DNA from: Moorena sp. SIO3H5
GTDB lineage: Bacteria > Cyanobacteriota > Cyanobacteriia > Cyanobacteriales > Coleofasciculaceae
Direction of reading: 5' to 3'
NCBI RefSeq assembly: GCF_010692395.1
Contig: NZ_JAAHHS010000023.1
Coordinates: forward strand, 721-41,760
DNA: 41,040 nt
This document shows, piece by piece, positions 6,028-39,564 of the stretch; position 1 is the first letter of the stretch; each line of letters starts with the position of its first letter. The notes below the pieces were generated by a model that was not told the DNA's origin, did not search any database, and saw only the letters and a list, made by a program, of their open reading frames with translations. A program made the translations under genes and the position numbers.

Positions 6028-7029
6028 ATGCAAGTTGATTTTAAAATCATTCGACAGACTCAAAACACTGCTCCACTACTCCAGACTTATAGGCTAGATG
6101 TCGAGAAAGGAAACACGATTCTGGAATGCTTGAATCGTATTAAGTGGGAACTTGATGGTACTTTAGCTTTTCGCAAAAATTGTCGCAACACGATTTGTGG
6201 TAGCTGTGGCATACGAATTAATGGTCGCTCGGCTTTGGCATGTAAGGAAAATGTGGGCAATGAATTGGGGAAGCAACAGCTCCCAGATGAGTCTAAAATT
6301 CCGGAGATTACTATAGCACCTCTGGGGAATATGCCAATAATCAAGGATTTAGTCGTTGAGATGAGCAGCTTCTGGGATAACTTAGAAGCTGTTGATCCCT
6401 ACGTCAGCACTGCTGCTAGGAAGATTCCCGAACGGGAATTTTTACAGAGTCCTAAAGAGCGATCGCTTTTGGCTCAGGCTGGTAATTGTATCATGTGTGG
6501 TGCTTGTTATTCTGAGTGTAATGCCAAAGAAGTTAATCAAGATTTTGTTGGTCCTCATGCCTTGGCTAAAGCACAGCGTCTGGTGGTAGATTCCCGTGAT
6601 AATACCACAGAAAATCGTTTGGAGAAATATAACGAAGCAATAAAAGGAGTCTGGGGTTGTACCCGCTGTATGATGTGTAATGCGGTTTGCCCGATGGATG
6701 TGGCTCCTATGGATCAAATTGGTAAGATTAAACAGCATATTCTTGAAGGTATTGAGACCTATGATAGCCGTCCAATCCGCCACCGCAAAGTCCTAATTGA
6801 TTTAGTCAAAGAGGGAGGTTGGATTGATGAGCGTAAGTTTGGCTTGCAGGTGGTTGGTAACTCATTTCGAGATATCCAAGGTTTGGTGAGCCTAGGACCA
6901 CTGGGATTACGAATGCTAGTTCGAGGTAAGTTTCCCTTGAGCTTTTCTCCATCAGCAGGAACATCACAAGTGCGATCGCTAATTGAATCGGTAAAAAATT
7001 TGGAGTCTGAAGGATCTGATCAGTCATGA
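6028..7029 (+). CDS. sdhB: Succinate dehydrogenase / fumarate reductase iron-sulfur subunit
   Basis: Three Cys clusters: CRNTICGSCGIRINGRSALAC (2Fe-2S), CIMCGACYSEC, CTRCMMCNAVCP. ATG 6028 is preferred over the upstream GTG 5956. Confidence 0.85.
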   Translation: MQVDFKIIRQTQNTAPLLQTYRLDVEKGNTILECLNRIKWELDGTLAFRKNCRNTICGSCGIRINGRSALACKENVGNELGKQQLPDESKIPEITIAPLGNMPIIKDLVVEMSSFWDNLEAVDPYVSTAARKIPEREFLQSPKERSLLAQAGNCIMCGACYSECNAKEVNQDFVGPHALAKAQRLVVDSRDNTTENRLEKYNEAIKGVWGCTRCMMCNAVCPMDVAPMDQIGKIKQHILEGIETYDSRPIRHRKVLIDLVKEGGWIDERKFGLQVVGNSFRDIQGLVSLGPLGLRMLVRGKFPLSFSPSAGTSQVRSLIESVKNLESEGSDQS

Positions 7030-7214
7030 GTTCTGAAACACCCAATAAGAGTGAATCATCTGAGGAGTCTTTTAACCAACCATTACCAGCTTTTGGTTGG
7101 ACTCCCTATGCTGAGCAAATCAACGGCAGGTTTGCTATGCTTGCCTTAGTTTGTATCGTGTTACTGGAGTTGCTCACTGGTCAAGGTTTGTTGACTTGGC
7201 TGGGTCTACTCTAA
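7026..7214 (+). CDS. hli: High-light-inducible / small CAB-like protein (one-helix chlorophyll-binding)
   Basis: 62 aa; FGWTPYAEQINGRFAMLALVCIVLLELLTGQGLL carries the E..NGR.AM chlorophyll-binding motif. ATG overlaps the sdhB stop (ATGA, 7026-7029). Confidence 0.85.
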   Translation: MSSETPNKSESSEESFNQPLPAFGWTPYAEQINGRFAMLALVCIVLLELLTGQGLLTWLGLL

Positions 7215-7535: not shown

Positions 7536-9338
7536 TCAAGCTGTCTTACCATTGGGGAAAGAGCTATGGGGCTTTGGATTTGCTATTTGGCCATGACTTC
7601 CTGCTCGGGGAAGGTCTTGCTTAGCCATAGCTTCACTGATGTATATTTCCTGCTGAGGCAGTGGGATCACGATCCCCTCTTGTTCAAATCTTTCTTTTAT
7701 AATTCGGCTGATGTCACAATAGGCTGTCCAATAATCTTCCTTCTTAGTATAGGCCATAAACCAAATGTTAACAGCATATTCAGCCAATTCTCCAGTGTCG
7801 ATCCAAGGGCCAGGGTCTTTCAATACTAAAGGATGAGTGTTGGCAATATCCTTAAGAACTTGGATCGCTTGAGTAATACTATTGCTGTAGCTGATCCTTA
7901 CGGTGATGAACATAGCGCGGACGGAGCTACTGGTTTCGTTGGCAATAACATTACCCCAGATTGAGTTGTTCGGTACGATAATGATTTTATTTTCCAAAGT
8001 ATTGATGGTGGTGCAAACTAAGTTGACATCCTTCACCGTACCTTTTACCCCAGCGACTTCAATCATATCCCCCACGTCGAAGGGTTTATAGAGCAAGATC
8101 ATTAACCCATTAGCAAAGTTACCAAGGGTATTTTGGAACGCAAAGGCTACCACAAAACCAGCAGCTCCAATCATGGCCATCAGTGGACCAATACTGACCT
8201 CTAGGGCAGTGATACCTAAAAGAATACCCACCAAAAATAATCCTTGGCGGGTTATCCTAACTACGAACTGACGCAGCATAGCTGACATATTCGGGAACAT
8301 CCACAAAGATTTCTCGAGGACTTTCCCTATAATCAGGGAGAGGATGCTAAAGCCAACGACGATTCCTAAAAATTTGCCAATGTTATTGGCCCAGCGCAGA
8401 CCTCCTTCTTTAGACTGGAGCCAGCCTACGATGGTAATCCAGGTTCCTTCAGTGTCAGTGACGTCAACCTTAATCCCACTGATAGCATCGATGTATTTGT
8501 TGTACAACTCAACATCACCGCCTTTAGTTTCCAGCTCTTCGAGTACCACCTCAAAGCGATCGCTTAAAGCAGTGCGTTCCTCTCGCAGTGTAGTCATGTT
8601 GACTAGCACTTGCTTTTTAACTTCGGTTTTGGCCTCGACCGCTTCTTCTAGGTCATGCTTGGCTTTGTCAATTCCCTGTCCAGTCTTTTTCTGCTCTTGT
8701 TCATCAGTAACGATTTTGTTGCTAATTGTCCCGATCTTATCTTGAACCTTAGCAACATCCTGGTTTGAGGTTTTGGCTTTATCTTTCTCCTGTTCAGTAC
8801 CTTCAACTGCTTTATCAATCGCCCCTTGCAAAGTTTGATCTTGCTTGGTCTTTTCCTCTTCTTTGACTGCTTCTTCTACTGACTCCTGAGCTTTTTCGAG
8901 AGCTTCTTGTGCTTCTTGTGCAGCTTCTAAAGCTTTAAGGCGATCCTTAGCCGAGCCGTCAGTCTCTGTTTTTTGCTTAGTATCTGTCGCTTCCTCAAGA
9001 GCCTCTTTGGCATCTTCTAGGGCATCAACAGCTTCTTTAGTTTGCTCAAGCTCTCGATTTTTGCGCTTGACAGCAATTTCAGCATCGCTAAGTTCTTTAA
9101 CTTTAGTTTTAAGCAAGAACATCCACGCCTCAGCTTCACCATCCAGCTCATCCTTAGTCAAAGGCTTGAGCATTAGCTCTAGCTCCTCAATCGGAATAGT
9201 TGGATCGTCAGTAGTAACGGCTTTCTCTAAGGCTAAATTATTAGTGGTCTGTTTAGCTTGGACAGGTAACCACCATGCCCCAACCATTAAGAGACTGCCA
9301 AACAAAATGTTAATTTTCTTTTGTCGGTAACGAATCAT
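7536..9338 (-). CDS. MscS-family mechanosensitive channel with long N-terminal E/K-rich coiled-coil region
   Basis: 600 aa: signal-like N-terminus, ~250-aa charged coiled coil, TM helices, then an MscS core (NGLMILLYKPFDVGDMIEVAGVKGTVKDVNLVCTTINTLENKIIIVPNNSIWGNVI). Confidence 0.85.
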   Translation of the reverse strand: MIRYRQKKINILFGSLLMVGAWWLPVQAKQTTNNLALEKAVTTDDPTIPIEELELMLKPLTKDELDGEAEAWMFLLKTKVKELSDAEIAVKRKNRELEQTKEAVDALEDAKEALEEATDTKQKTETDGSAKDRLKALEAAQEAQEALEKAQESVEEAVKEEEKTKQDQTLQGAIDKAVEGTEQEKDKAKTSNQDVAKVQDKIGTISNKIVTDEQEQKKTGQGIDKAKHDLEEAVEAKTEVKKQVLVNMTTLREERTALSDRFEVVLEELETKGGDVELYNKYIDAISGIKVDVTDTEGTWITIVGWLQSKEGGLRWANNIGKFLGIVVGFSILSLIIGKVLEKSLWMFPNMSAMLRQFVVRITRQGLFLVGILLGITALEVSIGPLMAMIGAAGFVVAFAFQNTLGNFANGLMILLYKPFDVGDMIEVAGVKGTVKDVNLVCTTINTLENKIIIVPNNSIWGNVIANETSSSVRAMFITVRISYSNSITQAIQVLKDIANTHPLVLKDPGPWIDTGELAEYAVNIWFMAYTKKEDYWTAYCDISRIIKERFEQEGIVIPLPQQEIYISEAMAKQDLPRAGSHGQIANPKPHSSFPNGKTA

Positions 9339-26281: not shown

Positions 26282-28144
26282 TCAGCTTTCCCCAACACAT
26301 CGATAAAGCTTATAACTATACTGACCAGCCCACTTAGAGCGCTTTTCTCGAAAACATTGCTGAGACTCTAGGTCAACTTTGGTACGGAAATTAACTAACC
26401 ATAAATCTAGTGGTCGTGGCAATTCATTTAATTGTTGTTGTAATTGTTGGACAGCATCCTCGTAACTGGAACTATTCCGGTCACGACCTACTAAGAAAAA
26501 TTGGGGAAAATCCCTGGAATTATCATTAGAACCATTAGCAACAGTCAGACCTTTCAATCCCCAAGCTAATCCCATCATGCGCCCGGTCTGTCCATGGTGT
26601 TTGTAGGTCGTTGCGATCGCAAGCGGTGCTTCACTTGCTTCCTTAAGAATAGACACTAGTAGATCCGGGCGCTCGTTTTGAAGATAACCAAGATTCGAGA
26701 CTGTCACTAATCCACCCAACAGCCCAATCAACCATACCGCTACCACTATCCTTTTGCCAAAGTAAGACTTATAGCTGTTTTCATCCCGATCAAGTACATA
26801 GGATTTTCTTCTACTTTCCTGTGTTCCCCTCCTGGGAGGGGTTAGGGGTGGGTTCCTGCTCCCTGCTCCCTGCTCCCTGTTCCCTGTTCCCTGTTCCCTG
26901 TTCCCTGCTTGTGCAACAAGTCTAATCTGATTCCAACAACCACCTAAGCTTGCTGCCACCAACAGGATCACTCCTGGAAAGTAGACGAAGTGAAAACGGG
27001 GGGCTGTGCTTAAATCTATACCGAAACCCCAGGTCAAGACTAAACATAACCCAATTGCTGCTAAGACATACTCCCTTAGGATTGTGATAACGGAACGGTT
27101 ATGGTGATCGAGTTGCTGTAATTTCAGTCCATAGCGGAGATGGGATACTATCCAAACCACTAGGATTAAGGTAACTATACCGGAAACAATAATAATTCCT
27201 AGGGATAGGTCATAGAAAGAAGAAGGTAGCAGTAACACCATACTGAACAGCCATAGTAAAAATCGTCCTATGGGTTCAATCCATCGTGCGATCGCATTTT
27301 GGCTATAAATCCATTGGGTAGGGGGACTATCATGAATCGTTTGTAAGGCCGGTATCCACACTAAACATCCCGCTAAGGAACCCATAGCTACTCCATAAAT
27401 TCCCCACCAGTAAGGTTTGATCAAAGCTAGTCGGTCTTGCTGAGTTTCTCGCCAAGCTTGTCCCAATAATGCGATCGCTTCCGCACCTAAAGTCAGGATA
27501 AAGAAATAATGGGTAGCAATGCCCAGACTATTCACTCCCACCCACCCTAACCCTAGCCAACTGGGCAACCGTTCACCACAGTCGATTAACTCTACCGCTT
27601 TCACCAAGCAACCGAGAGATGCTATCACTAGCACAATAGCCAGAGTATAATGACGAGCCTGTTGAGCTAGGAAAATCCCGAAAGGGGAAACAGCCATCAT
27701 TGCTGCTGCTATGTGACCTACCAATAGTGAGCGAAAGGCCAGCCGACCTAGGCAAAAGATAGCAGGAATCGAGATTACTCCCAATAAAGCAGAAAGCGAT
27801 CGCACTGCCCAAATCGAAACTATACCATCCTCTAATGGGAATAGTTTTAGCCACAGATGGGTCAGAGCAAAATAAACTGGGGGATGGGTACTTTCCGTTA
27901 ATAAATAATGAATAACATTACTAATGCCAGCATCAGGAGACGGTTGTAGTGGGCTTAATAGGGTGTCTACTCCCATAAACTGATTCAGAGGTAACGAGTA
28001 AAAACTGTTACCCAAGCTAAATACTGTTGTCGCACATTCATCAGTCCAAGGAGGTAAAACCCCTAAACCAGCAAAGCGCAGCAAAGTCCCAATCGTAATC
28101 CACAGCAGCAATAATAAAACAGTTTGGGATTTTTTTAAGTACAT
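26282..28144 (-). CDS. GT39/ArnT-PMT-like membrane glycosyltransferase (GT-C fold)
   Basis: 620 aa; ~11 TM helices; N-terminal LRFAGLGVLPPWTDECAT motif typical of family 39; C-terminal soluble domain. Contains an in-frame repeat insertion (next feature). Confidence 0.8.
   Translation of the reverse strand: MYLKKSQTVLLLLLWITIGTLLRFAGLGVLPPWTDECATTVFSLGNSFYSLPLNQFMGVDTLLSPLQPSPDAGISNVIHYLLTESTHPPVYFALTHLWLKLFPLEDGIVSIWAVRSLSALLGVISIPAIFCLGRLAFRSLLVGHIAAAMMAVSPFGIFLAQQARHYTLAIVLVIASLGCLVKAVELIDCGERLPSWLGLGWVGVNSLGIATHYFFILTLGAEAIALLGQAWRETQQDRLALIKPYWWGIYGVAMGSLAGCLVWIPALQTIHDSPPTQWIYSQNAIARWIEPIGRFLLWLFSMVLLLPSSFYDLSLGIIIVSGIVTLILVVWIVSHLRYGLKLQQLDHHNRSVITILREYVLAAIGLCLVLTWGFGIDLSTAPRFHFVYFPGVILLVAASLGGCWNQIRLVAQAGNREQGTGNREQGAGSRNPPLTPPRRGTQESRRKSYVLDRDENSYKSYFGKRIVVAVWLIGLLGGLVTVSNLGYLQNERPDLLVSILKEASEAPLAIATTYKHHGQTGRMMGLAWGLKGLTVANGSNDNSRDFPQFFLVGRDRNSSSYEDAVQQLQQQLNELPRPLDLWLVNFRTKVDLESQQCFREKRSKWAGQYSYKLYRCVGES
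26825..26903. repeat. Palindrome CCCCTCC-TG-GGAGGGG plus seven heptamers (3x TGCTCCC, 4x TGTTCCC) lying inside the GT39 ORF
   Basis: Translated in frame as AGNREQGTGNREQGAGSRNPPLTPPRRGT; verified codon by codon. Confidence 0.95.
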
Positions 28145-28550: not shown

Positions 28551-29189
28551 TCAACGACGAAATAAGCGTAAAATTATCCACATTACCAGAGTAGCGATCG
28601 CACCAGTGAGAATACTCCAGGCAAAAGCTGGTGTCATCATAAAGATAGTATTATTTTCAGGGGGTTGTTGTTTAACTAGGACAGTCGCAGTAATGCTACT
28701 GGTTGCTACTCCCACGCCAGCCAGAGCAATGCTTTGGTGTAAGCTACGATTACTCTGGGTTTGGTAAGTTTGGGTCATGCCATCTACTGTCCGAATCATA
28801 TTTTCTAGTAAGGTTAAACCAGACTTTAATCTGCCATGCTCCATCTCCACTTGTTGCAGATATTGGCTAGCTGCTAAATCCCTAAATTCTTCGAGAATGT
28901 GCCAATCACCCCGTTGATCAACCTGTTTTAGTTTAGTCAATCGTTGTTGGTAATGTTCGATATTGGTTTTAATGGTTTGGGCTTGGGAATCGAGAATACC
29001 TAAATTAGTAGCATAACGAGACAATAGAGTGAGGTTATTGCTTAGTATTTCTCGTAACTTTACTGTATTTTGAGATAACATACTGATCTCAGCAATACTA
29101 GTGTTAACTGAAACTAGATCAGCTTTCAATTCTGCTAGTGGTGTGTTAATTTCACCATAAGCCCAAAGAATTTTGTTACGATAATACAA
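28551..29189 (-). CDS. Hypothetical coiled-coil protein with two C-terminal TM helices, overlapping the kinase gene by 14 nt
   Basis: 212 aa. The only canonical start is TTG 29189. Long helical/coiled region, then SIALAGVGVATSSITATVLV and AFAWSILTGAIATLVMWIILRLF. Family not recognised. Confidence 0.5.
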   Translation of the reverse strand: MYYRNKILWAYGEINTPLAELKADLVSVNTSIAEISMLSQNTVKLREILSNNLTLLSRYATNLGILDSQAQTIKTNIEHYQQRLTKLKQVDQRGDWHILEEFRDLAASQYLQQVEMEHGRLKSGLTLLENMIRTVDGMTQTYQTQSNRSLHQSIALAGVGVATSSITATVLVKQQPPENNTIFMMTPAFAWSILTGAIATLVMWIILRLFRR

Positions 29190-30618
29190 TAGGTAAATTA
29201 AATCTATATAAATGCCAGTAATGGTGTCTATTATAGAGGCTATAACAACGACCCCAATGAGCTTCTGCTAAATTTGAGTTGCTTGCGATCGCTTTTTCGT
29301 AAGTCATCAGTGCTTGCTGGTATTTTTCTGCTTGCCGCAAGCTATCCCCTTGGCTGTTTAATTCTATTGCAGTTGGTTGTGTTTCCGGGTCGGATGGCGA
29401 TTTCGCAGCTGATTCGGTATCCGATTCGGGAATAGTTTTTTGGACTGAGCTGGTAGTAGTACTTTCAGGGGTGTTGCTAACTACGGCTGGGGTTGCAGGT
29501 TTTGACTCAGAGCTGGTGGTCGAACTTTCGGCAACGGTATCGCTAATGTTATCAGTAATGTTGTCAGTTTGAGTGACAGGTTTGGGAACTAGAAAAGTCT
29601 TAGTAGCGATCACAGAAATACCGATACCCATCCCTGCTAAGACAGTAATCATCAACCAAGGCTTCATTAACCATCTTCGGATGATCTCTGATCTGGCCTG
29701 GGTTTGTGCTGATGTTGCTGAAAAAGAAACAGTCTCTTCCGGAACTGTAGCAGACATAGCTATTGTTGGTGCAGCAGTTAGCCTCTGAACTGCTGCCAAC
29801 GCTTCTACTGCCGTCGGGTAGCGGTCACGGAAATCATAGCGCACCATACAGTCGAGGATATCCGCTAATTCTGAGTTAACTTGGGTGTTAAGTTGGATGC
29901 GATTGCGCCAGTTGATTTCCCCTGTTTCGGAGTTTTCTTTTAGTAACTTGGGATGAATTCCGGTTAATGCCTGGATACCTACCATCCCCACCGCATAGAT
30001 ATCGCTGCTAAAACGGGGATTGCCACCGAACTGTTCTTTGGGGGTGTAGCCATAACTGCCAATCGCAATGGTTTTGGTTTGCCCCGTTTCGGGATCGATA
30101 ATCTGGGTGCTAGCTTGCTTAACTGCCCCAAAGTCAATCATGACTATTCTATTATCCTTGCGGCGGCGAATCAGGTTTGGGGGTTTGATATCACGATGGA
30201 TCACACGTTGCTCATGGACAAATACTAGGACTTGTAGGATGTCTTGCAACAGAGCAATCACTCGATTTGATTCCCAAGGCTGACTGATTTCTTGGTTGAG
30301 GGGTTGTCCATCAATAAATTCTTGGGCCAGATAAAACTCGTGATTTTCCTCAAAATGCGCCAGCAACTGGGGGATCTGATCGTGGGTACCCAGCTGGTAG
30401 AGGACTTGGGCTTCTCGCTCAAATAGGCCTTTGGAAATTTCCAAACACTCAGGATCCGTCACCTGAGGTTTGAGCTGTTTAATCACACATTGGGGAGTTC
30501 CTGGCAAGTGCAAGTCCTGTGCCAGAAACGTTTCACCAAAGCCACCTGCTCCCAGCTTGCTGATAATTTTGTAGCGACCGCCTAAGGGCTTTGCGGAATT
30601 TAGCAGTTCATTGTTCAT
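29176..30618 (-). CDS. Hanks-type Ser/Thr protein kinase with TM helix, S/T/P-rich region and a truncated TPR-like C-terminus
   Basis: 480 aa; GAGGFGETF (G-loop), VIKQL (Lys), HRDIKPPNL, DFG, GSYGYTPKEQ. TM segment WLMITVLAGMGIGISVIA. Confidence 0.9.
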   Translation of the reverse strand: MNNELLNSAKPLGGRYKIISKLGAGGFGETFLAQDLHLPGTPQCVIKQLKPQVTDPECLEISKGLFEREAQVLYQLGTHDQIPQLLAHFEENHEFYLAQEFIDGQPLNQEISQPWESNRVIALLQDILQVLVFVHEQRVIHRDIKPPNLIRRRKDNRIVMIDFGAVKQASTQIIDPETGQTKTIAIGSYGYTPKEQFGGNPRFSSDIYAVGMVGIQALTGIHPKLLKENSETGEINWRNRIQLNTQVNSELADILDCMVRYDFRDRYPTAVEALAAVQRLTAAPTIAMSATVPEETVSFSATSAQTQARSEIIRRWLMKPWLMITVLAGMGIGISVIATKTFLVPKPVTQTDNITDNISDTVAESSTTSSESKPATPAVVSNTPESTTTSSVQKTIPESDTESAAKSPSDPETQPTAIELNSQGDSLRQAEKYQQALMTYEKAIASNSNLAEAHWGRCYSLYNRHHYWHLYRFNLPIVLS

Positions 30619-30692: not shown

Positions 30693-31610
30693 TTAACTAT
30701 CAATTTTAACCGTAGACACCCAGTCTTTGTATTTCGGTTCCCGATTTTCGGTAATTGCTGCTAGCATTTCCTTTAGCTTTTCGGTTATTGGTCTGTTTTG
30801 AGATAAATGATAGTTTTCAATTCGTTTAACTGGGGTGATCTTTGCCGCTGTCCCACTCAGAAATACTTCATCCGCAATAAATAGTTCTGATTTATCCACT
30901 GGTCGTTGTATAGTTGGCAAGCCCATGTCTTTAGCAAGGGTCAGAATACTATCCCGAGTAATTCCTTCTAGGATATCCTGATCGAATCCAGGGGTAATTA
31001 GCTGCCCATTTCTGACTATAAAGATATTCATCCCAGAAGCTTCCGATACTTTCCCCTCAGAATTCATCAAAATTGCTTCATCAAAGCCAGACTCTACTGC
31101 TTCTGTTTTTGCCAAGGAAGAGGTAATATAAGCCCCACTAATTTTACCTCTCAAGGGTAAACTTTGGTCTTGTTGTCGATGCCATGAACTAATCCGACAG
31201 TTAACTCCCTTAGGAGATAAAAAATCACCTAATTCTAATCCATACACAAAAAAGTCTTTGTCAATCTTATGGAGTCTCGGGGAAATTCCTAAATCTGACG
31301 TGTAGACAAAAGGGCGGATATAAAACGGTGTAGTTGGTTTATTTTGTTTTATAAAATCAATGATAATAGTCTTGATTTTATCAGCAGGTAAATTGTAGTT
31401 TAATAACCGGGCACTATTACTTAGCCGTTGGCAATGGCGGTCTAACCGAAACAGTAAACATTGCTGTGGGTTTTTCGGGTCAGGGAGAGAGCGTAATCCG
31501 CCAAAAGCTCCAGTGCCGTAGTGTAAGGCATGGGTAGCAATGGAAATTTTGGCGTCAGCAAAAGGGACAAACTTGTTCTGAAAGTAAGCAATGGGCAAAA
31601 AATCAGGCAT
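30693..31610 (-). CDS. ilvE: Branched-chain amino acid aminotransferase (class IV PLP enzyme)
   Basis: 305 aa; HALHYGTGAFGGLR, GAYITSSLAKTEA, EASGMNIF, LEGITRDS motifs. Confidence 0.9.
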   Translation of the reverse strand: MPDFLPIAYFQNKFVPFADAKISIATHALHYGTGAFGGLRSLPDPKNPQQCLLFRLDRHCQRLSNSARLLNYNLPADKIKTIIIDFIKQNKPTTPFYIRPFVYTSDLGISPRLHKIDKDFFVYGLELGDFLSPKGVNCRISSWHRQQDQSLPLRGKISGAYITSSLAKTEAVESGFDEAILMNSEGKVSEASGMNIFIVRNGQLITPGFDQDILEGITRDSILTLAKDMGLPTIQRPVDKSELFIADEVFLSGTAAKITPVKRIENYHLSQNRPITEKLKEMLAAITENREPKYKDWVSTVKIDS

Positions 31611-31897
31611 AGTTAAAATCAGTGCTTCAAGATTAATTTATCTCAGTTTAACGAGAGGCTGACAGCATGGTCTCCATGGCATAAGCGCCTTGTTGTCACC
31701 CCCTCAGGGGGAACTGGCTCCTACCCATGACCTACCCAAAACCCCACACCCGACACCCTATCTAATTTTCACTCTTGTTGTCAGCCCCTGAGCACCGCTG
31801 GCCATGGTTGACAATAAATTTTTCATGTGCTAAGCAAAACTCAGCACTGACCTACTCAGCACTGATCCACGATGTTCTAGTTAGCAGGAGTGAAATC

Positions 31898-32482
31898 TTG
31901 GCTGAACCTATTTATGTTCAATTGACCTGGGAAGACCCAGAAACCGGCGAGTTAAAGAAACCTGTTCTGAGACCGCCCATTGCTGTTGGTCGAGAAAAGG
32001 ACCATTTGCCAGAACAGTTAGCAGGTCAATCTGTGTCTCATCTGGTACTTCTTGACAAAGAAATTTCCCGCTATCACGCCCTGATCACAGTGGCTAATAC
32101 CCAACTCTATATTACTGACCGCAGCGCCAACGGCACATTTATTAACGGGCGACAGATTCGCTCTGGTATTCAACCTTTTTCAAGCAAGGACACCCTGCGG
32201 ATTGGTCCTTACAAGATTACAGCGACCTTGAAACGGGAAAATGACCTGAACGCCACTGCACAGAACTTTGACCAGACGAGTCTATTAGGTGAGAAAAGTG
32301 TCTCCAACTCTCTGCCCAAGAATAAACCTATGGTTTGGTTGATTGGCTTAGTGGTACTTTTAATAATGGGAGTCGGCACGTGGGTCGTGGTCAGCGGTCT
32401 GCTGGAAGGGTTAAAACCGGAGATGCAAGACGAGGACAACGATTCCTCTACACATCTAGAACGGTTAGTCGTCAACAGCTAG
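31898..32482 (+). CDS. FHA-domain protein with C-terminal TM anchor
   Basis: FHA signature GRE...ISRYHALI...ITDRSANGTFINGRQI. TM segment MVWLIGLVVLLIMGVGTWVVVSGLL. TTG 31898 with AGGAG 8 nt upstream is preferred over the upstream TTG 31775. Confidence 0.78.
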   Translation: MAEPIYVQLTWEDPETGELKKPVLRPPIAVGREKDHLPEQLAGQSVSHLVLLDKEISRYHALITVANTQLYITDRSANGTFINGRQIRSGIQPFSSKDTLRIGPYKITATLKRENDLNATAQNFDQTSLLGEKSVSNSLPKNKPMVWLIGLVVLLIMGVGTWVVVSGLLEGLKPEMQDEDNDSSTHLERLVVNS

Positions 32483-32547
32483 TTAGCTCAATCTTAACCA
32501 TGAGATTCTAATGTTATCGAAAATAGAACCTAAATGGAACGTAACCT

Positions 32548-34572
32548 ATGGAATCTCTTCTGAATGTTCGATTTTCCATTAACCCTTTCCCAAGGGTTAG
32601 GTTTCAGCGTTCCTTGGGATTGGTTTTGCTAGGTGTACTTACCCTACTGCTCACCCTATTACCATGCTCTACCTTAGCACAGGAATCTTTGGCAAATGGC
32701 ACTAAGAAAGCTCCTGTGGTAGTGGATGGTATTGAATTATTTCAAGTGGGCAACGCTGGCAACTTTAGCGCTACTGAGCGAGCCAATCTGATCAATCAGC
32801 GCTTAGCAAGGGAGGTGAAATCCCCACAAAAACCTAAGTATGTGGACATTGAATATGTCGGGCAAAACGAGGGGATTCTTCGTACCAAGTTTACCGAGCG
32901 CATTCTGGTCACCATTACCAAGGCCGATCAAATTCCTGATACTGATCCTCTTGAGCAAGCCCAGAAATGGGAGAAGCTGATTGAAAGGGCAATCCGGCAG
33001 GGCAAACGACAGCGGATGCCAGATTATAGTCGTCAGGCAGTAAGGTTTACAGCCATAGTGCAGGTGTTGTTAATGCTGTTGTACTTGCTGTTACGCTTCT
33101 TCAGGCAATTTGCCTTGCGGAAACTGACCTCTTGGCTAGGGAATCCGGCTTCGCCTTTTTTCCCTTGGCATGACCCAGCCAAATTATTTCTGGGGGCAGC
33201 CCTGTTAGGTTTACAGCTTATCCTGTGGACTACAGCGATCTTAACCATTAGTGACCTATTTCCCCAAGTTCGCAGTTGGCGTTATGACCTGTTAAACTTC
33301 CTCAAGTCTCCTGTCATTGGTGCAGGAGAAAGCAAGTATTCTGCTATCCAAGTGCTGCTGTTGGTGGTATTAACCGTTGTGCTATGGTTTGTGGTTAGTG
33401 CCCTCACCAGGCTATTGAGGCGTTACGTCTTGGGCAAAAGTGGCGCTGATTCAGGGGTGCAAGAGGTTATTGCTATCCTGACCCAGTATGTCCTGACATT
33501 TTTGGGCATGATTATCATACTGCAAAGTTCTGGGTTGGATTTGAGTTCCCTAACCATTTTTGCCAGTGTCTTAGGGGTAGGAATTGGCTTCGGTGTGCAA
33601 AATATTGCTAACAACTTTATCAGTGGCTTAATTATCACCCTAGAGCGACCGATTCAACTGGGGGATTTTATTAAAGTCAACGATTTGGTGGGAACTGTGC
33701 AGCGCATTGGTTCCCGCAGTACAGAAATTTGCACCTTGGATAAAGTGACAATAATTGTGCCCAATGCCCGGTTTTTAGAAACTGAGGTGATTAACTGGAG
33801 TCACGGTAACCCGATTTCCCGGCTCAAGATTCCTGTAGGAGTGGCTTACGGATCTGATGTGGAGCAGGTCAAGAAGGCACTGTTGGCAGCTGCCAAGAGT
33901 CACCCGGAAGTGTTACTGAGGCCCTATCCCCAAGTTTGGTTTCAGGAATTTGGTGAGAGTTCCCTCAACTTTGAGCTGTTGGTCTGGACTGGAGACCCCA
34001 AGCGGCAGCCTAAAATCAAAAGTGACTTGAACTACCGGATTGAGAAAAGTCTGCGTCGCCATGATATCCATATACCATTTCCTCAACGGGACCTCCATGT
34101 GCGATCGCCTCAGTTAGAGAAATTGCTCACGGCTTGGCTGGGGGAGCGTCAGCCAAAACCGCCAGAAAACCAACTCTATATTCCTAATGGATATCAGTCT
34201 GAGCGGCCCACCCAAGATGCTTTAGTTTCAGGTTTCCTAGAGCCGATGGATGAAGTAGATCTAGATTCTTACCCTACGGCTCCTTTGCAAGAGGATATGG
34301 TAACACTAGACATTGAAACCTTGGTCGAGGAAATGCGTCAACCAGGAGGATTGGATATTAAAGACCGTCGCTATCGTCTCAATAGCTATGGATGCTGTTT
34401 TGTTGGCTCAGAAGCCGTAGATTGGTTGGTAAAACGGTGTAATTCTACTCGGGAAGACGCAGTAACTGTTGGACAGATACTAATTAATAGAGGTATTATT
34501 CATCATGTCGCAGATGATCATCCTTTCCGGGATGATTATTTGTTTTACCGTTTTTATTTAGATGAGAATTAA
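32548..34572 (+). CDS. MscS-family mechanosensitive channel with C-terminal DEP domain
   Basis: 674 aa. MscS core NNFISGLIITLERPIQLGDFIKVNDLVGTVQRIGSRSTEICTLDKVTIIVPNARF. Last ~85 aa (nt ~34309-34569) GGLDIKDRRYRLNSYGCCFVGSEAVDWLVKRCNSTREDAVTVGQILINRGIIHHVADDHPFRDDYLFYRF align by eye to the DEP consensus. Confidence 0.85.
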   Translation: MESLLNVRFSINPFPRVRFQRSLGLVLLGVLTLLLTLLPCSTLAQESLANGTKKAPVVVDGIELFQVGNAGNFSATERANLINQRLAREVKSPQKPKYVDIEYVGQNEGILRTKFTERILVTITKADQIPDTDPLEQAQKWEKLIERAIRQGKRQRMPDYSRQAVRFTAIVQVLLMLLYLLLRFFRQFALRKLTSWLGNPASPFFPWHDPAKLFLGAALLGLQLILWTTAILTISDLFPQVRSWRYDLLNFLKSPVIGAGESKYSAIQVLLLVVLTVVLWFVVSALTRLLRRYVLGKSGADSGVQEVIAILTQYVLTFLGMIIILQSSGLDLSSLTIFASVLGVGIGFGVQNIANNFISGLIITLERPIQLGDFIKVNDLVGTVQRIGSRSTEICTLDKVTIIVPNARFLETEVINWSHGNPISRLKIPVGVAYGSDVEQVKKALLAAAKSHPEVLLRPYPQVWFQEFGESSLNFELLVWTGDPKRQPKIKSDLNYRIEKSLRRHDIHIPFPQRDLHVRSPQLEKLLTAWLGERQPKPPENQLYIPNGYQSERPTQDALVSGFLEPMDEVDLDSYPTAPLQEDMVTLDIETLVEEMRQPGGLDIKDRRYRLNSYGCCFVGSEAVDWLVKRCNSTREDAVTVGQILINRGIIHHVADDHPFRDDYLFYRFYLDEN

Positions 34573-34691: not shown

Positions 34692-34740
34692 ACGGCTGAC
34701 CACTGACGGCTGACGGCTGACAGCTGACGGCTGACAGCTG
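34692..34740. repeat. Heptamer array (GACGGCT/GACAGCT)
   Basis: Read directly. Confidence 0.9.
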
Positions 34741-34759
34741 AATACTTAGATTAATTTCA

Positions 34760-35263: not shown

Positions 35264-35395
35264 GAATTGCTCTAATCCTCCTGTTGATTAAACGTTGCTG
35301 ACAAGGGTAACTATATCAATTTTTGTAGGAGTTGTGAATAGGGCACTATAGGGCAATTTTCAGCAAGGTTTGAGGGACATTGTTTATAGTTTTAA

Positions 35396-35444
35396 GGCAA
35401 TAGGCAATAGGCAATAGGCAATAGGCAATAGGCAATAGGCAATA
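35396..35444. repeat. Heptamer array (GGCAATA)x7
   Basis: Counted directly. Confidence 0.95.
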
Positions 35445-35594
35445 GCGATGCTTCAGAAAGTAGTATACTAAGATTACGTAATTTTTTTGGGAAGCGATTG
35501 ACCTTGGCCTAAAGGCCACGCTAGGCGAATGGTCACGCTACGCGATGCTCGGTAGGAGCCGCTACGGGAACGCAAAAAAATAGACTTTACTGAG
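35440..35594 (+). repeat. Dispersed GC-rich element, copy A (direct repeat partner of 39565-39748)
   Basis: CAATAGCGATGCTTCAG...GGCCACGCTAGGCGAATGGTCACGCTACGCGATGCTCGGTAGGAGCCGCTACGGGAACGC aligns with copy B at roughly 85 percent identity by eye, with one 9-nt indel. Confidence 0.8.
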
Positions 35595-35627: not shown

Positions 35628-35781
35628 GGGCATCCTGCCCGCGCGGAAATAAGGAGGAAACTGGCAAGATGCCAGTTCCACGCAAGATGCCCGCGCGAAA
35701 ATAAGCATGAAACTGGCAAGATGCCAGTTCCACGCAAGATGCCAGTTCCACGCAAGATGCCAGTTCCAGGGCAAGATGCCC
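35628..35781. repeat. Array of small hairpins / 18-nt tandem units (CAGTTCCACGCAAGATGC)
   Basis: Repeated TGGCA-AGA-TGCCA and GGGCA-NNN-TGCCC stem-loops. The larger ~55-nt unit is duplicated. Confidence 0.85.
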
Positions 35782-35940: not shown

Positions 35941-38900
35941 TTACTCTTCAAACTCCTTAATTGTTTTCATGTATTTTTTTGATGCTCCTTCAGATAATTG
36001 AAGTCTTTGTTCTTTTTTAATGCGAAAATATTCATTATAAACTTCCTGACTTTCTTTCTGCTCAAGTAAATAATCATAAGGACCTTTACCAGACAAAAGT
36101 TTAACTAATATAGGTGAGATTTCAATAGTGACGAATAAGGCAGTTATTAGCCAATTAATATTACGAATATTCGGATCGTCTTTAGATAACTCTTCTAAAG
36201 CAACAAGACGAGCTAAGAAGCCATAGGATTTTTTGTCAATTTTTTCTTGATTCAGTTGTTCTAAGTTACTCTCTGGTGACTGCAAAATAAGATTACGTTC
36301 TTTAAGCTTATCTATTTTATCCTCTTTCTCCTTAACTTTATTATCTAATTCAATAAATTTTTGTTTGATCTCATCTGCATAGTTTCGTTTGTCTTGATAA
36401 ACAATTCCTTTTCCAAGTTGGCCTGTTCCCTGTGTACCTTCTGCTTCTGCATTAGCCGCATATTCTGCATTTTGCCATTCATTTTTGTACTTATTTTTTT
36501 CTATATTTAAGGCTTGAATTTCTTGCTCTAGGTCTTTTATTGGTTCGGTAAGTTCTTCTTTGGATAGTTCATTTTTATCTTGTTCTATTTTCTGGTTAAT
36601 TTCTTTTTCAAAGAGCCTCAACTCAAGGGGTTTAGCAACCACAAAGCTTAACAATAATGCTATTAACAATCGAAGACTTGTTGCTGCAATAAATGGCAAA
36701 TTTAAATTTAAGTCCGTTTCTTTTCTCTTAGAGCTTAAAATTAAAAAACGATCTAAGTTAAAAACTATAAAACTCCAAAACGTTCCTCCTAGACAAGAAG
36801 CTGCTACAGAACCAAATACTGTAAAAAGAGCATAACCACCGGAAAAAATAGCCGTTGTTGATGTTAGCAGAACCGTGGTACCAATTGCTGTATATTTATA
36901 TCGTTCTGTCAAACATTCTTTTTGTGCCAAAATGTGATGATCTGCACCAGCACACCATAGCAAAAATTTTTCTAGTGAATTTAAATTATCGTTAATTGTT
37001 GGAGTCTGTATTAGGTGTTGAAGTTCAGCTGGTAAGCCAATTTCGTTTATAAAAGTACCAACCCCTTCAACACCATAAGTATTCAGAGCACTTTTGATAT
37101 ATTCTGTAGCTCTTTCCTGAATTTGCTCCCGTTGTTGTAAGAAGTCTAAAGCATTATAGTCTTGAGCGGAATTACGGAAGTAATTACCAACCATCGATGC
37201 TAAGACCCTATTCACAAGGTTTTTAATAGAGCTATATTTAACCGCACCCTTAGACAAGGGGCTAAGAACTCCTCCTTCTTCCTCAACTTGCTGAAAACTA
37301 TGAGCATTTGGTGAACCCACACGAGAGATCATTTTAGGAGAATTGTTGGGAGCAATATTAATAACCTGGGTGACTTCAAGATTCAAAATAAAGCCATCTT
37401 TTGAGCGAAGCTTTAATGTGTTCAAATTAGAATCATAGTTGGTTGCTGGTTTATCTCTATTCGTCCAGTCCAAAGTTATTTCATGGGCAGGAACTATTAC
37501 TATATTTTTAACTCTTGTATTGATAGGATGTGTTCCCGCTTCTATTGGTATGTTTTGAATCCCTTTATACCCAATTGGAACGATATTAAACTGAGAACCA
37601 TAAGTATTTTGCTCTTGATTGGCGTGGCTATTCTTACCAACATTGGAGATTAAAACTCCAACTGTTCCAGTTTTAATATTAGTTAAAGGAACTTGTTCAA
37701 CTTCCACAAACCAAGGATTTAAACTCCAAAAACCTTCTTCGATAAATTCTTCTTGTAAACCTCGATAGCCACTTTTGTCAATAAACTCCTGTGGCTCCTG
37801 AAACTTATTATGTCCCTCAATAACTGGTCCTGCAATCTCCCCTCTTGGTAAGGGCTTACCATCAAAAGTAGTAACAATACCAATTTTACCTGATTCAACT
37901 CTGTAAACTTTTAATTGTTCTGGTTTCAGTCCATATTGCTTGGCATTGTCAGTAGTAACTACTGTAAATATTTCAGTGTTTATTCTATAGGAACCTTCAG
38001 TAAGAATTGTGCGCTGTTTACCTTGTTGACCACCGTTGTTGACAAAGGCTTCAGCATTCTGAAAATTATCGCAATCTACAGCTTTACCTAGTATTTGTCC
38101 TGGTGGTAGTTCAGCACCATCTTGAGCAATAACTAGCCCTATCTCCCCTGAGCGAATATTAATTACTGGGACATTATTAACTTTAAACAACTCTGTATTA
38201 ATGTAGTGAGTTCCAGGAGGAATAATTCCTAATTGGTTCCCTTGTTGACCGCCGTTTTTGATAAATGCTTCAGCGTCCTGAAAAGTGTCACATTCAACAA
38301 CTTTACCAAAGTTCTGACCAAGTGGAAGTGGCTGACCATCCCTTGCTTCCACTAACCCTACTTCATTAACTCCAATTTTGATAAGTTCAACTCTCTTAAT
38401 TTTGAAAAGTTCTGTATTAATTGCGTATTTGCCAGTAGTAATAATCTTTAACTGTTGTCCCCTATATCCCCCATTATCAATAAATGCTTGAGCGTCTTCA
38501 AAATTGTTGCATTCAACAGCATCACCAAAGGTTTTTCCAATCGGAAGTGGCTTGCCATCTTTCGCTTCTACTAAGCCAATTTCATAGTCATTAATATGAA
38601 TAATTTTCCTGATTTCAACAGAAAAAAGTTGAGTATTAATCCGATAAATACCATTTCTTAAAATGCCTAACTGCCTACCCCGTTGACCACCATTTTTGAT
38701 AAAAGCACGACCATCTTGAAAGTCATCACATTCTTCGATAACTTTCCCAAAAATTTTACCTGTGGCAAGAGAAGCACCATCGTTGGCGGTTACTAATCCA
38801 ATTTCATCTTTATCAATATGTATAGCCATTTGTTTAACAACTTTATAGCTCAAAGGAGAGTGGAAATGTCTTCCAGGACCAAGAGTATCAACCTGCCAAC

Positions 38901-39021
38901 CCATTTCTCCATTAAGAGCGATTTGACGATTAGATGGTAAAGGACTACCAAACTTTTTATAGACAATTCCAACCTCATCTTGAGAGATTACATAAACGCC
39001 AGGTGCCCGATCAATTGCCAT
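35941..39021 (-). CDS. 1026-aa fusion protein: seven tandem beta-rich modules + SPFH/band-7-like core + DUF4407-like membrane and coiled-coil domain
   Basis: ATG 39021 with GGAG 8 nt upstream. Modules each open with E[IV]G[IL]V at residues 16, 73, 147, 220, 293, 379, 453. SPFH-like segment KDGFILNLEVTQVINI...YIKSALNTYGVEGVGTFINEIGLP. DUF4407-like LLWCAGADHHIL...YKYTAIG...FWSFIVFNLDRFLI plus a K/E coiled coil at residues ~800-930. Low G+C (12-23 per 60-nt line in five sampled lines). Confidence 0.85.
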   Translation of the reverse strand: MAIDRAPGVYVISQDEVGIVYKKFGSPLPSNRQIALNGEMGWQVDTLGPGRHFHSPLSYKVVKQMAIHIDKDEIGLVTANDGASLATGKIFGKVIEECDDFQDGRAFIKNGGQRGRQLGILRNGIYRINTQLFSVEIRKIIHINDYEIGLVEAKDGKPLPIGKTFGDAVECNNFEDAQAFIDNGGYRGQQLKIITTGKYAINTELFKIKRVELIKIGVNEVGLVEARDGQPLPLGQNFGKVVECDTFQDAEAFIKNGGQQGNQLGIIPPGTHYINTELFKVNNVPVINIRSGEIGLVIAQDGAELPPGQILGKAVDCDNFQNAEAFVNNGGQQGKQRTILTEGSYRINTEIFTVVTTDNAKQYGLKPEQLKVYRVESGKIGIVTTFDGKPLPRGEIAGPVIEGHNKFQEPQEFIDKSGYRGLQEEFIEEGFWSLNPWFVEVEQVPLTNIKTGTVGVLISNVGKNSHANQEQNTYGSQFNIVPIGYKGIQNIPIEAGTHPINTRVKNIVIVPAHEITLDWTNRDKPATNYDSNLNTLKLRSKDGFILNLEVTQVINIAPNNSPKMISRVGSPNAHSFQQVEEEGGVLSPLSKGAVKYSSIKNLVNRVLASMVGNYFRNSAQDYNALDFLQQREQIQERATEYIKSALNTYGVEGVGTFINEIGLPAELQHLIQTPTINDNLNSLEKFLLWCAGADHHILAQKECLTERYKYTAIGTTVLLTSTTAIFSGGYALFTVFGSVAASCLGGTFWSFIVFNLDRFLILSSKRKETDLNLNLPFIAATSLRLLIALLLSFVVAKPLELRLFEKEINQKIEQDKNELSKEELTEPIKDLEQEIQALNIEKNKYKNEWQNAEYAANAEAEGTQGTGQLGKGIVYQDKRNYADEIKQKFIELDNKVKEKEDKIDKLKERNLILQSPESNLEQLNQEKIDKKSYGFLARLVALEELSKDDPNIRNINWLITALFVTIEISPILVKLLSGKGPYDYLLEQKESQEVYNEYFRIKKEQRLQLSEGASKKYMKTIKEFEE

Positions 39022-39175
39022 AAGAAAAACTCCAATTAGATTAACTAGTTAATAATCAAAATCATACTATTTCGCTACCTTAATTCTTATTATTTTAACG
39101 TGAGTTTGACGAACTGGACAAAGGTGAAAGAGGGAGCATGTCACTTATGCAGCAACATTAGTACTAAATTTAGAG

Positions 39176-39259
39176 AATGGGGAATGGGGAATGGGGAATG
39201 GGGAATGGGGAATGGGGAATGGGGAATGGGGAATGGGGAATGGGGAATGGGTAATGGGT
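39176..39259. repeat. Heptamer array (AATGGGG)x10 + 2 variants
   Basis: Counted directly. Confidence 0.95.
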
Positions 39260-39329
39260 AATAGGTATAGCAGTCGCCAGGGCAGTTAGGACATGACAAA
39301 AGTCTCAAACCTAAGTAAGCGCAAGAGTT

Positions 39330-39364
39330 TGACTTCTGACTTCTGACTTCTGACTTCTGACTTC
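39330..39364. repeat. Heptamer array (TGACTTC)x5
   Basis: Counted directly. Confidence 0.95.
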
Positions 39365-39564
39365 TGCTGTAATAGGGGGAGCATCTCACAATAGCCGAGT
39401 ATTTTTACTTTTTCTATAGCCCTCTCATGGGTAATTGCTTGCTAATCATGGTAAATAGTTGATCTGTTTTGCAACTAATACTTGCTCATATCTCGCATTT
39501 TTGTTGTTTTGTCAAGTAGTTCATGTGTTCGCCAAATTTGACCTGCTCCCGATCCATCCGATGA

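Follow-up and report, generated by a model that had tools for sequence, protein, structure and literature searches.

A cyanobacterial MscS-family channel with a C-terminal DEP domain and its clade-specific linkage to an FHA protein and a Hanks-type kinase

A stretch of 41,040 nucleotides of Moorena sp. SIO3H5 (contig NZ_JAAHHS010000023.1, positions 721 to 41,760; hereafter the window) contains a gene for a homologue of the mechanosensitive channel MscS, which raises a twofold question: does this bacterial channel carry a genuine DEP domain, and do an FHA protein and a Ser/Thr kinase encoded nearby form one regulatory module with it? DEP domains are best known from eukaryotic signalling proteins (Dishevelled, RGS, Epac, pleckstrin), in which they mediate association with membranes and receptors. 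FHA domains bind phosphothreonine (pThr) made by Hanks kinases. An earlier note on this DNA had described a channel of 674 amino acids (aa) whose C-terminus follows the DEP pattern along its whole length, a membrane-anchored FHA gene 65 nt upstream on the same strand and a Ser/Thr kinase gene approximately 1.3 kb away on the other strand. The window proteins were scanned with Pfam and NCBIfam, and the open reading frames (ORFs) were listed together with their translations. The channel ORF and its translation agreed exactly with this description, the FHA protein indeed possesses a C-terminal transmembrane (TM) segment, the starts of the kinase and FHA genes are 1280 nt apart on opposite strands, and positions 31898-34572 comprise exactly the FHA and channel genes.

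The channel ends in a genuine DEP domain. The profile PF00610 matched aa 601-669 over its entire length (1-72 of 72) with E=1e-22 and 80.2 bits, compared to a gathering score of 32.7, which bears out the pattern seen in the earlier note. A phmmer comparison of the last 93 residues with all PDB sequences returned exclusively DEP proteins. The best per-domain E-values were obtained with DEP1 of DEPTOR (1e-16) and DEP1 of P-Rex1 (2e-13), DEP2 of P-Rex1 also being among the best matches, followed by Epac2, Iml1/DEPDC5 and GPR155/LYCHOS and, more weakly, by Dvl and RGS7. An AlphaFold model of aa 596-673 (pLDDT 88) was superimposed on the DEP domains of P-Rex1, DEPTOR and Epac2 with TM-scores of 0.78-0.82 and root mean square deviations (rmsd) of 1.2-1.6 Å at 44-51% sequence identity; with the RGS7 domain included, the values ranged from 0.78 to 0.84 and from 1.2 to 1.9 Å. 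The top 46 Foldseek matches of this model were all eukaryotic DEP domains, those of Dvl2 and LYCHOS being among the fold matches, while bacterial winged helices of the MarR type appeared only at E>0.2. The three-helix bundle, the beta-hairpin arm and the C-terminal beta wing of the DEP fold are all present; the full-length channel model places helix 1 at aa 589-597, the hairpin at 605-619, two further helices at 620-631 and 635-647 and the wing at 651-669, with pLDDT values above 90. The hairpin forms a basic arm ('IKDRRYRL') whose R607 is kept in at least 90% of the sequences of the DEP alignment. Judging by the topology of the C-terminus in the MscS family, the domain should be cytoplasmic.

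The fusion is not confined to Moorena. More than 100 top homologues of the full protein all combine PF00610 with PF00924 and PF21082, and all named ones are cyanobacterial, among them Moorena (94% identity), Symploca, Coleofasciculus, Trichocoleus, Leptolyngbya, Lyngbya, Geitlerinema PCC 7407 and Rubidibacter. A DEP-only alignment, scanned against single genomes representing 185,579 species, yielded 329 DEP-coding stretches, the best 80 of which were essentially all cyanobacterial. At the loci that were fetched, 82 of 89 DEP matches were fused to an MscS core (loci L001-L086); the remaining seven comprise non-fused proteins (L081; L043 of Prochloron, two matches), a match without an MscS core in L064 of Paraprochloron, two remnants (L051, L052) and one match at a contig edge (L038). 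Thus, MscS-DEP is a conserved, almost exclusively cyanobacterial channel family. The fusion itself is not new to databases, in which hundreds of cyanobacterial homologues are already automatically labelled with the three Pfam families. An exhaustive DEP profile search gave 5559 cluster representatives with E<=1e-3 and 363 with E<=1e-30; it was ranked by summed score, by which multi-DEP proteins occupy the best 150 places, and is hence no census of single-DEP architectures.

Some observations on individual DEP loci may be added. The non-fused protein of a Leptolyngbyaceae metagenome-assembled genome (MAG; L081, 9758-10237) consists of 159 aa with a single DEP domain. The Prochloron protein (L043, 9758-10627; 289 aa) is built from two repeats, each comprising an N-domain and a DEP domain, and its gene lies between those for a sugar ABC substrate-binding protein and a permease. 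The remnants in Coleofasciculus MAGs (L051, 11309-11629; L052, 9764-10240) are partial duplicates of the region encoding linker and DEP domain, one of which is located past a small inserted gene pair 3' of an intact channel gene. In the channel tree described below, the MscS-DEP gene of a MAG labelled Crocinitomicaceae (L067) was the sister of L040 from the unicellular cyanobacterium SU3; its contig was probably mis-binned and is cyanobacterial, not Bacteroidota DNA with a DEP gene. The top ranks of the exhaustive search are filled by proteins with two to seven tandem DEP domains, some of them eukaryotic or protist and some metagenomic, and some with a Ser/Thr kinase or an AAA_16 (STAND-like) ATPase domain.

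To the second part of the question, the neighbourhoods gave a divided answer. Linkage was determined by tblastn of the window proteins against the fetched loci, the linked group being defined by an MscS core at least 68% identical to that of the window. The gene for the FHA-TM protein was found directly upstream on the same strand in 27 of 27 linked-group loci with sufficient flank but at none of the 41 other channels, and an orthologous kinase gene lay within 4.5 kb on the opposite strand in 19 of 22 linked-group loci as against 0/33 others. A family HMM of the FHA-TM protein detected no FHA gene within 10 kb on either side of the other-group loci, save for a Lyngbya locus that holds both channel paralogues. 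All-against-all clustering of the flanking ORFs singled out the same two genes (FHA 23/23, kinase 18/23 dereplicated loci), all others occurring in at most 6/23. Around the FHA-less MscS-DEP loci no widely conserved neighbour gene was detected, the best one reaching 14 of 44 loci by local synteny only. In Moorena the order is kinase-TPR(-), aminotransferase(-), FHA(+), MscS-DEP(+), in Geitlerinema PCC 7407 and Lyngbya it is kinase-TPR(-), FHA(+), MscS-DEP(+), and the Rubidibacter channel has neither FHA nor kinase gene in its neighbourhood. Two divergent metagenome channels (L090 and L091; 45-50% overall identity) also possess an upstream FHA gene and an adjacent kinase-TPR gene; in L091, FHA, channel and kinase genes are on one strand with the kinase gene shifted downstream. 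The definition by core identity was therefore too narrow and was replaced by a tree.

A neighbour-joining (NJ) tree without support values, calculated from 361 columns that cover TM region and vestibule and with E. coli MscS serving as the outgroup, united all FHA-linked channels in a single clade nested within the MscS-DEP family. Within this clade also nest three close orthologues that are devoid of a DEP domain (L087 of Potamolinea and L088, both 567 aa; L089, 606 aa) and that have kept the divergently oriented kinase-TPR gene and the upstream FHA gene. Due to this position in the tree, the DEP domain must have been lost secondarily at least once. The FHA linkage does not depend on the DEP domain. 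Since the DEP-less orthologues retain FHA and kinase while most MscS-DEP channels have neither, the DEP domain and the kinase/FHA pair are two separable, independent layers and not one 'FHA-DEP' device. Thus, the conservation of the FHA gene beside MscS-DEP, which the earlier note had considered, holds for one clade and fails for the others, and of the single FHA/kinase/DEP module only the evolutionary coupling of FHA and kinase to this channel clade stood. The DEP domain appears to be an ancestral appendage of the channel family, the kinase/FHA association a later, clade-specific one.

The gene neighbourhoods of the clade show some further variation. In Lyngbya aestuarii (L005/L006) the order is MscS-DEP#2(+), kinase(-), aminotransferase(-), kinase(-), FHA(+), MscS-DEP#1(+), paralogue #2 being without an FHA gene and sister to the FHA-linked clade. 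A Xenococcaceae MAG (L011) contains tandem FHA-TM copies (6629-7204 and 7713-8288) 5' of the channel gene. A class-IV aminotransferase gene adjoins the kinase/FHA/channel genes at 7 of 22 clade loci (including L003, L005/L006 and L021), those of Moorena, Geitlerinema PCC 7407, Lyngbya and Waterburya among them, which could reflect remnant synteny or a loose functional link.

The FHA-TM protein has the sequence features expected of a pThr reader. Its FHA domain scored 51.4 bits (cutoff 20.7), and the pThr-binding residues G31-R32, S57-R-Y-H60 and N78-G79 were conserved in 29 of 29 aligned family members. The protein begins with 'YVQLTWEDPETGE'. The FHA domain is followed by a nearly invariant motif, 'KDTLRIGPYKxTAxL..NDLNAT' (aa 98-120), which includes T120, by basic residues, by a TM helix at aa 145-167 and by a short acidic or Ser/Thr/Pro-rich tail. 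The location of the TM helix close to the C-terminus points to a tail-anchored topology with a cytoplasmic FHA domain. The family comprises about 130 clusters at 90% identity with lengths of 181-275 aa, mostly below 230, and all its named members are cyanobacterial. The contigs of many members agree in length with contigs of the MscS-DEP matches, so that both genes may well share a contig there.

The kinase of the window (PF00069, 102.5 bits) contains the motifs 'CVIKQLK', 'HRDIKPPN' and 'DFG', which are conserved in its orthologues. Linked orthologues consist of 610-760 aa with intact VxK, HRD and DFG motifs, a TM helix and several external TPR repeats, and their activation loop 'DFGAVKQ..TQ...GQTxTIxIG' is invariant; T183-I-A-I presents an Ile at position pT+3, which fits the preference of many FHA domains. 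In the window kinase, the TM segment is followed by an external Ser/Thr/Pro-rich linker and a remnant of the first TPR alone. Compared to a 614-aa Moorena kinase, it is 91% identical up to aa ~461, then diverges and ends at aa 480 inside TPR1. At the DNA level, five Moorena loci are homologous to the window from ~29238 onwards, a position within the first TPR. Either the TPR sensor was lost by rearrangement or there is an assembly mis-join at ~29238. Without the TPR sensor, the input side of the kinase could be changed or no longer function in this genome. Beyond this point, the ORFs 28551-29189 (212 aa) and 26282-28144 (620 aa) have no syntenic Moorena counterpart; Moorena possesses a gene for a 410-aa protein and an LNT/CN_hydrolase gene at this place.

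The channel core is clearly of the MscS type. MS_channel_2nd (PF00924) matched aa 352-419 with E=2e-20 (73 bits, cutoff 20.2) and MS_channel_3rd (PF21082) aa 427-509 with E=5e-22 (78.6 bits, cutoff 21). Among solved structures, E. coli MscK (7uw5; E=1e-51, aa 216-522) comes nearest, followed by MscM (1e-37) and MscS (~1e-28); BLASTP aligned channel aa 266-525 to E. coli MscS 28-284 (E=1e-32), and Foldseek retrieved MscK and MscS at E-values of 1e-20 to 1e-16. The score with the MscK equivalog NF008438 was 224.7 bits, restricted to aa 263-526, where 991 are needed, and the MscM equivalog cutoff of NCBIfam was likewise not reached. A signal peptide or first TM segment (aa ~16-44, '...TLAQ'; model helix H16-37) is followed by a periplasmic alpha/beta domain (aa ~54-155, pLDDT 85-95) conserved in both clades and by five modelled TM helices (158-197, two within 205-253, 266-298 and 302-327). 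The Gly/Ala-rich pore helix TM3 (aa 332-366, 'ASVLGVGIGFGVQNIANNFISGLII') is alignable to E. coli MscS, and pore helix and vestibule are completely conserved. By analogy to solved MscS-family channels, the protein is presumably a heptamer. Residues D301 and E306 align with D62 and D67 of E. coli MscS, which identifies aa 296-306 ('GKSGADSGVQE') as the cytoplasmic hairpin between TM1 and TM2. Here lies the clearest clade-specific position of the channel, three residues N-terminal of the D62 equivalent: position 298 (nt 33439-33441), within the motif '(K/R)-T-G-A-(D/E)', is Thr or Ser in 28 of 28 FHA-clade sequences as opposed to approximately 6 of 45 others. Reportedly, Nomura and colleagues found in 2008 that D62 couples the TM1-TM2 loop with the vestibule and influences inactivation. 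Between vestibule and DEP domain, the model has a pLDDT of ~30 (aa 534-581); a search of this linker for a conserved phospho-acceptor or a pT-x-x-(I/L/D) motif was negative in both clades, the linker being unconserved and predicted to be disordered.

Taken together, these data are consistent with a tension-gated channel under two cytoplasmic regulatory layers, DEP docking and tuning of gating by the kinase/FHA pair, although we regard the chances of this proposal as about even. Seven tethered DEP domains would dock reversibly on the inner leaflet, rich in the anionic lipids PG and SQDG, or on cytoplasmic loops of the channel itself, and would thereby bias gating or localisation. Docking would involve the conserved basic residues K605, R607, R608 and R610 of the beta-hairpin, by analogy with the DEP domains of Epac1, Dvl, RGS and LYCHOS. 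The nearest DEP relatives attach by a basic surface to anionic lipids or to membrane proteins at their cytoplasmic face, and Epac1 requires R82 of its DEP domain in order to bind phosphatidic acid and to localise to the membrane (PMC5093460). As for the FHA clade, the kinase may sense an envelope or periplasmic cue by its TPR domain and autophosphorylate its activation loop, in which GQTxTIxIG offers a pT-x-x-I site. This pThr would be read by the membrane-anchored FHA protein, which would join kinase and channel, and phosphorylation of Thr/Ser298 in the TM1-TM2 hairpin of the channel and/or of Thr120 of the FHA protein might then change gating.

Several points speak against this scheme. The kinase of the window is without the C-terminal multi-TPR extracytoplasmic domain. 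Its channel has Ser and not Thr at position 298 and the linker between vestibule and DEP domain contains no conserved Thr; as FHA domains are specific for pThr, docking of the FHA protein on the channel is improbable in this case, and a docking site on the kinase or on the FHA-TM protein itself is more likely. The correspondence of R607/R608 to R82 of Epac1 is tentative, and the full-length AlphaFold model is that of a monomer, which says nothing on DEP docking. The spacer between FHA and channel genes reaches ~740 nt in Coleofasciculus. Finally, the NJ tree is without support values, and by their phylogeny the loci are not independent of one another.

It is conceivable that information flows in the opposite direction and that the channel is the sensor, a tension-induced conformation of MscS-DEP being read by the FHA/kinase pair and by partners bound to the DEP domain to elicit phospho-signalling. 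For plant MSL10, a similar kind of signalling, independent of ion flux, has been proposed. A conserved trio of kinase, FHA protein and channel is compatible with either direction, eukaryotic DEP domains are typically scaffolding or recruitment modules, and MscS-like proteins may have roles other than that of a valve, overexpressed fusions of the bCNG type having given E. coli no protection against osmotic shock (PMC13591265). On the other hand, the kinase orthologues have an external TPR domain of their own, which is the more usual input module, pore helix and vestibule show the full conservation of functional channels, and clustering of the flanking ORFs revealed no downstream effector encoded in the cluster. 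We consider this possibility unlikely.

Rather more doubtful is the assumption that the DEP domain serves as a protein-protein or oligomerisation module, clustering channels by domain-swapped dimers or recruiting a soluble partner, instead of docking on lipids or the face of the channel. The domain-swapped dimers of Dvl2 DEP (PDB 5lnp, 5suy) were among the fold matches, standalone and tandem DEP proteins exist in cyanobacteria (159 aa in L081; two DEP domains in L043) with up to seven DEP repeats elsewhere, and the long flexible tether would be suited to reach neighbours. However, the FHA-less clades have no conserved partner gene (best 14/44 loci), the window domain is closest to the P-Rex1/DEPTOR/Epac type and not to Dvl (E=1e-16 versus 1e-4), and its basic hairpin, which is conserved, speaks for docking on an anionic surface.

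With still lower probability, the gene adjacency is nothing but inherited synteny, FHA protein and kinase acting on other targets. All linked loci indeed belong to one clade, so that a single ancestral arrangement is possible, the FHA-channel spacers are sometimes long (up to ~740 nt) and the class-IV aminotransferase gene recurs as well without an obvious functional link. By contrast, the trio is kept across several orders (in Moorena, Coleofasciculus, Symploca, Geitlerinema PCC 7407, Lyngbya, a Xenococcaceae MAG, Waterburya, Kastovskya and two metagenome contigs) while all other neighbours turn over. It also persists where the kinase gene was relocated (L091), where the FHA gene was duplicated in tandem (L011) and where the DEP domain was lost (L087-L089), and every member of the small FHA-TM family (~130 clusters) whose locus was examined adjoins this channel clade. 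That the DEP segment is an artefact caused by eukaryotic contamination, chimeric assembly or a generic bacterial winged helix is practically negligible in spite of the overwhelmingly eukaryotic distribution of DEP domains and the unusually high identity (44-51%) to those of human DEPTOR and P-Rex1, because the fusion is a single ORF in the finished genomes of Geitlerinema PCC 7407 (CP003591) and Crocosphaera watsonii WH 8501 (chromosome) and is seen in about 80 independent loci, winged helix-turn-helix domains such as MarR ranked far below in Foldseek (E>0.2) and the GC content is ordinary; contamination and the generic winged helix were rejected on these grounds.

The proposal of a channel with two regulatory layers can be compared to several known systems. 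The bCNG channels also join an MscS core to a C-terminal cytoplasmic sensor domain and are mostly cyanobacterial; this domain binds cyclic nucleotides (cNMP), their physiological role is unknown and there is no structure (PMC2246266, PMC13591265). In the window channel the C-terminal domain is DEP, without any cNMP_binding match in Pfam, the protein has an MscK-like periplasmic domain and five TM helices, and one clade adds the kinase/FHA linkage. MscK and MscM of E. coli (7uw5, 7ux1, 11so) are nearest in pore, TM region and vestibule and share extra N-terminal TM helices and a periplasmic domain, but they are much longer (1100-1120 aa versus 674 aa) and have neither a DEP domain nor kinase or FHA neighbours. 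LYCHOS/GPR155 (8u54 and other entries) is likewise an integral membrane protein of the transport type with a homologous C-terminal cytoplasmic DEP domain (E=2e-9). It is, however, a cholesterol sensor of eukaryotic lysosomes that combines a PIN-like transporter with a GPCR-like fold and is unrelated to MscS, and its DEP domain is less similar to that of the window than those of P-Rex1 and DEPTOR. The nearest DEP relatives are found in P-Rex1, DEPTOR and Epac1/2 (44-51% identity, rmsd 1.2-1.4 Å), with the common signature 'IKDRR.(H/R)L..Y..CF.G.E.VDWL...GIIHHV.D.H.F.D...YRF'; these are soluble eukaryotic proteins with an internal or N-terminal DEP domain, whereas the window protein contributes one DEP domain per subunit of the presumed heptamer.

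As regards the kinase/FHA pair, PknA/PknB with FhaA and FhaB/FipA, and Fha-PpkA of type VI secretion systems (T6SS), also combine a membrane Hanks kinase gene with that of a small, sometimes membrane-anchored FHA protein reading pThr. The window FHA protein scored 24.4 bits with FhaB_Rv0019c/FipA (NF049868), for which 125 are needed, and 41.7 with TagH (TIGR03354), for which 120 are needed. The output of the actinobacterial and T6SS modules is cell division or secretion, while the neighbour in the window is a mechanosensitive channel and the FHA domain is N-terminal in a tail-anchored protein. Arabidopsis MSL10 (8tdl), a distant fold match to the window channel, resembles the proposal in that it is an MscS-family protein modulated by Ser/Thr phosphorylation, reportedly of its cytoplasmic domain according to Veley and colleagues in 2014. 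It differs in being a plant protein with phospho-sites in a long N-terminal domain and without an FHA partner or DEP domain.

A literature search, which left out most subscription journals, yielded nothing on MscS-DEP channels, cyanobacterial DEP domains or kinase/FHA control of a bacterial MscS, in agreement with the earlier note's view that the fusion has not been characterised. A review of the gating of bacterial MscS-like channels (September 2026; PMC13591265) makes no mention of DEP, FHA, kinases or phosphorylation, calls the specialised roles of MscS-like channels with extra domains "poorly explored" and discusses bCNG as the sole fusion. Tentatively, the system might be the first bacterial mechanosensitive channel under Hanks-kinase/FHA control and/or reveal DEP as an old prokaryotic sensor of the membrane state. 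If the latter were true, the cyanobacterial domains could be the source of DEP domains of the P-Rex/DEPTOR/Epac type, or stem from an ancient transfer from eukaryotes. In any case, two conserved regulatory add-ons to MscS-like channels are defined, a bona fide DEP domain and a dedicated kinase/FHA pair. The clades with DEP only, with DEP and FHA/kinase, and with FHA/kinase only are natural controls that make clean genetics and electrophysiology possible. For the DEP field, a single DEP domain on a known channel fold is a simple prokaryotic system in which to ask what DEP senses at the membrane, and it raises the question how a domain 44-51% identical to those of human DEPTOR and P-Rex1 became widespread in cyanobacteria.

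The features of the locus are compiled in Table 1. The ORF of the FHA-TM protein was listed mechanically from 31775; its actual start is the TTG at 31898, as indicated by the 194-aa gene call in Moorena, the family alignment and an AGGAG 9 nt 5' of the codon. A scan of the spacer between FHA and channel genes detected neither a terminator-like hairpin nor a promoter-like site, which suggests that the two genes may be co-transcribed; in orthologous loci their spacing varies from -13 to ~740 nt. Apart from this terminator-free spacer, the promoter and terminator scan of the locus gave nothing informative, and the Rfam scan of the entire window was without a match.

Table 1. Genes and protein regions of the kinase/FHA/MscS-DEP locus (window coordinates)
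Feature	Position	Strand	Basis or remark
Hanks-type Ser/Thr kinase, 480 aa	29176-30618	-	Pkinase E=3e-29, TPR_11 E=2e-5
Kinase TM segment (~aa 318-340)	29599-29667	-	
Kinase catalytic domain (aa 16-274)	29797-30573	-	
Class-IV aminotransferase	30693-31610	-	between kinase and FHA genes
FHA-TM protein, 194 aa, TTG start	31898-32482	+	FHA PF00498 E=1.5e-13
FHA domain	31985-32206	+	
Post-FHA motif	32189-32257	+	
TM anchor of FHA-TM protein	32330-32398	+	
FHA-to-channel spacer, 65 nt	32483-32547	+	
MscS-DEP channel, 674 aa, ATG start	32548-34572	+	PF00924, PF21082, PF00610
Channel N-terminus: signal peptide or first TM, periplasmic alpha/beta domain	32548-33018	+	full-length AlphaFold model
Channel TM region (aa ~158-366), including pore helix	33019-33645	+	model helices; BLASTP to E. 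coli MscS
MscS vestibule, beta and alpha/beta domains (aa 367-532)	33646-34143	+	PF00924, PF21082
Acidic tether (aa ~533-581), predicted disordered	34144-34290	+	pLDDT ~30; poorly conserved
DEP domain (aa 582-673) and stop codon	34291-34572	+	PF00610, fold matches, pLDDT >90

Some minor features of the non-coding DNA and of the region downstream are mentioned for completeness. Two copies of the direct repeat CTCAGCACTGA at 31841-31865 form a terminator-like hairpin of the minus strand, 33-57 nt 5' of the FHA start codon; loci of the M. producens type (L001, L002, L009) have ~135 additional bases at this site. Perfect or near-perfect tandem arrays of heptanucleotides occupy intergenic positions at 34692-34741, 35395-35445, 39175-39262 and 39330-39366, the first beginning 120 nt past the channel stop codon. 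Their units (ACGGCTG, AGGCAAT, GAATGGG and TGACTTC) resemble the STRR repeats of filamentous cyanobacteria. An 18/52-nt tandem repeat is present at 35636-35780. The minus strand at 35941-39021 encodes a protein of 1026 aa that consists of about five N-terminal repeats of ~65 aa (consensus 'GLV.A.DG.PLP.G..FG..VEC..FQDA.AFI.NGG..G.Q'), an SPFH/Band_7 domain and a C-terminal DUF4407 membrane domain. In Moorena this protein is conserved at 89-95%, and its gene occupies the equivalent place 3' of the channel gene.

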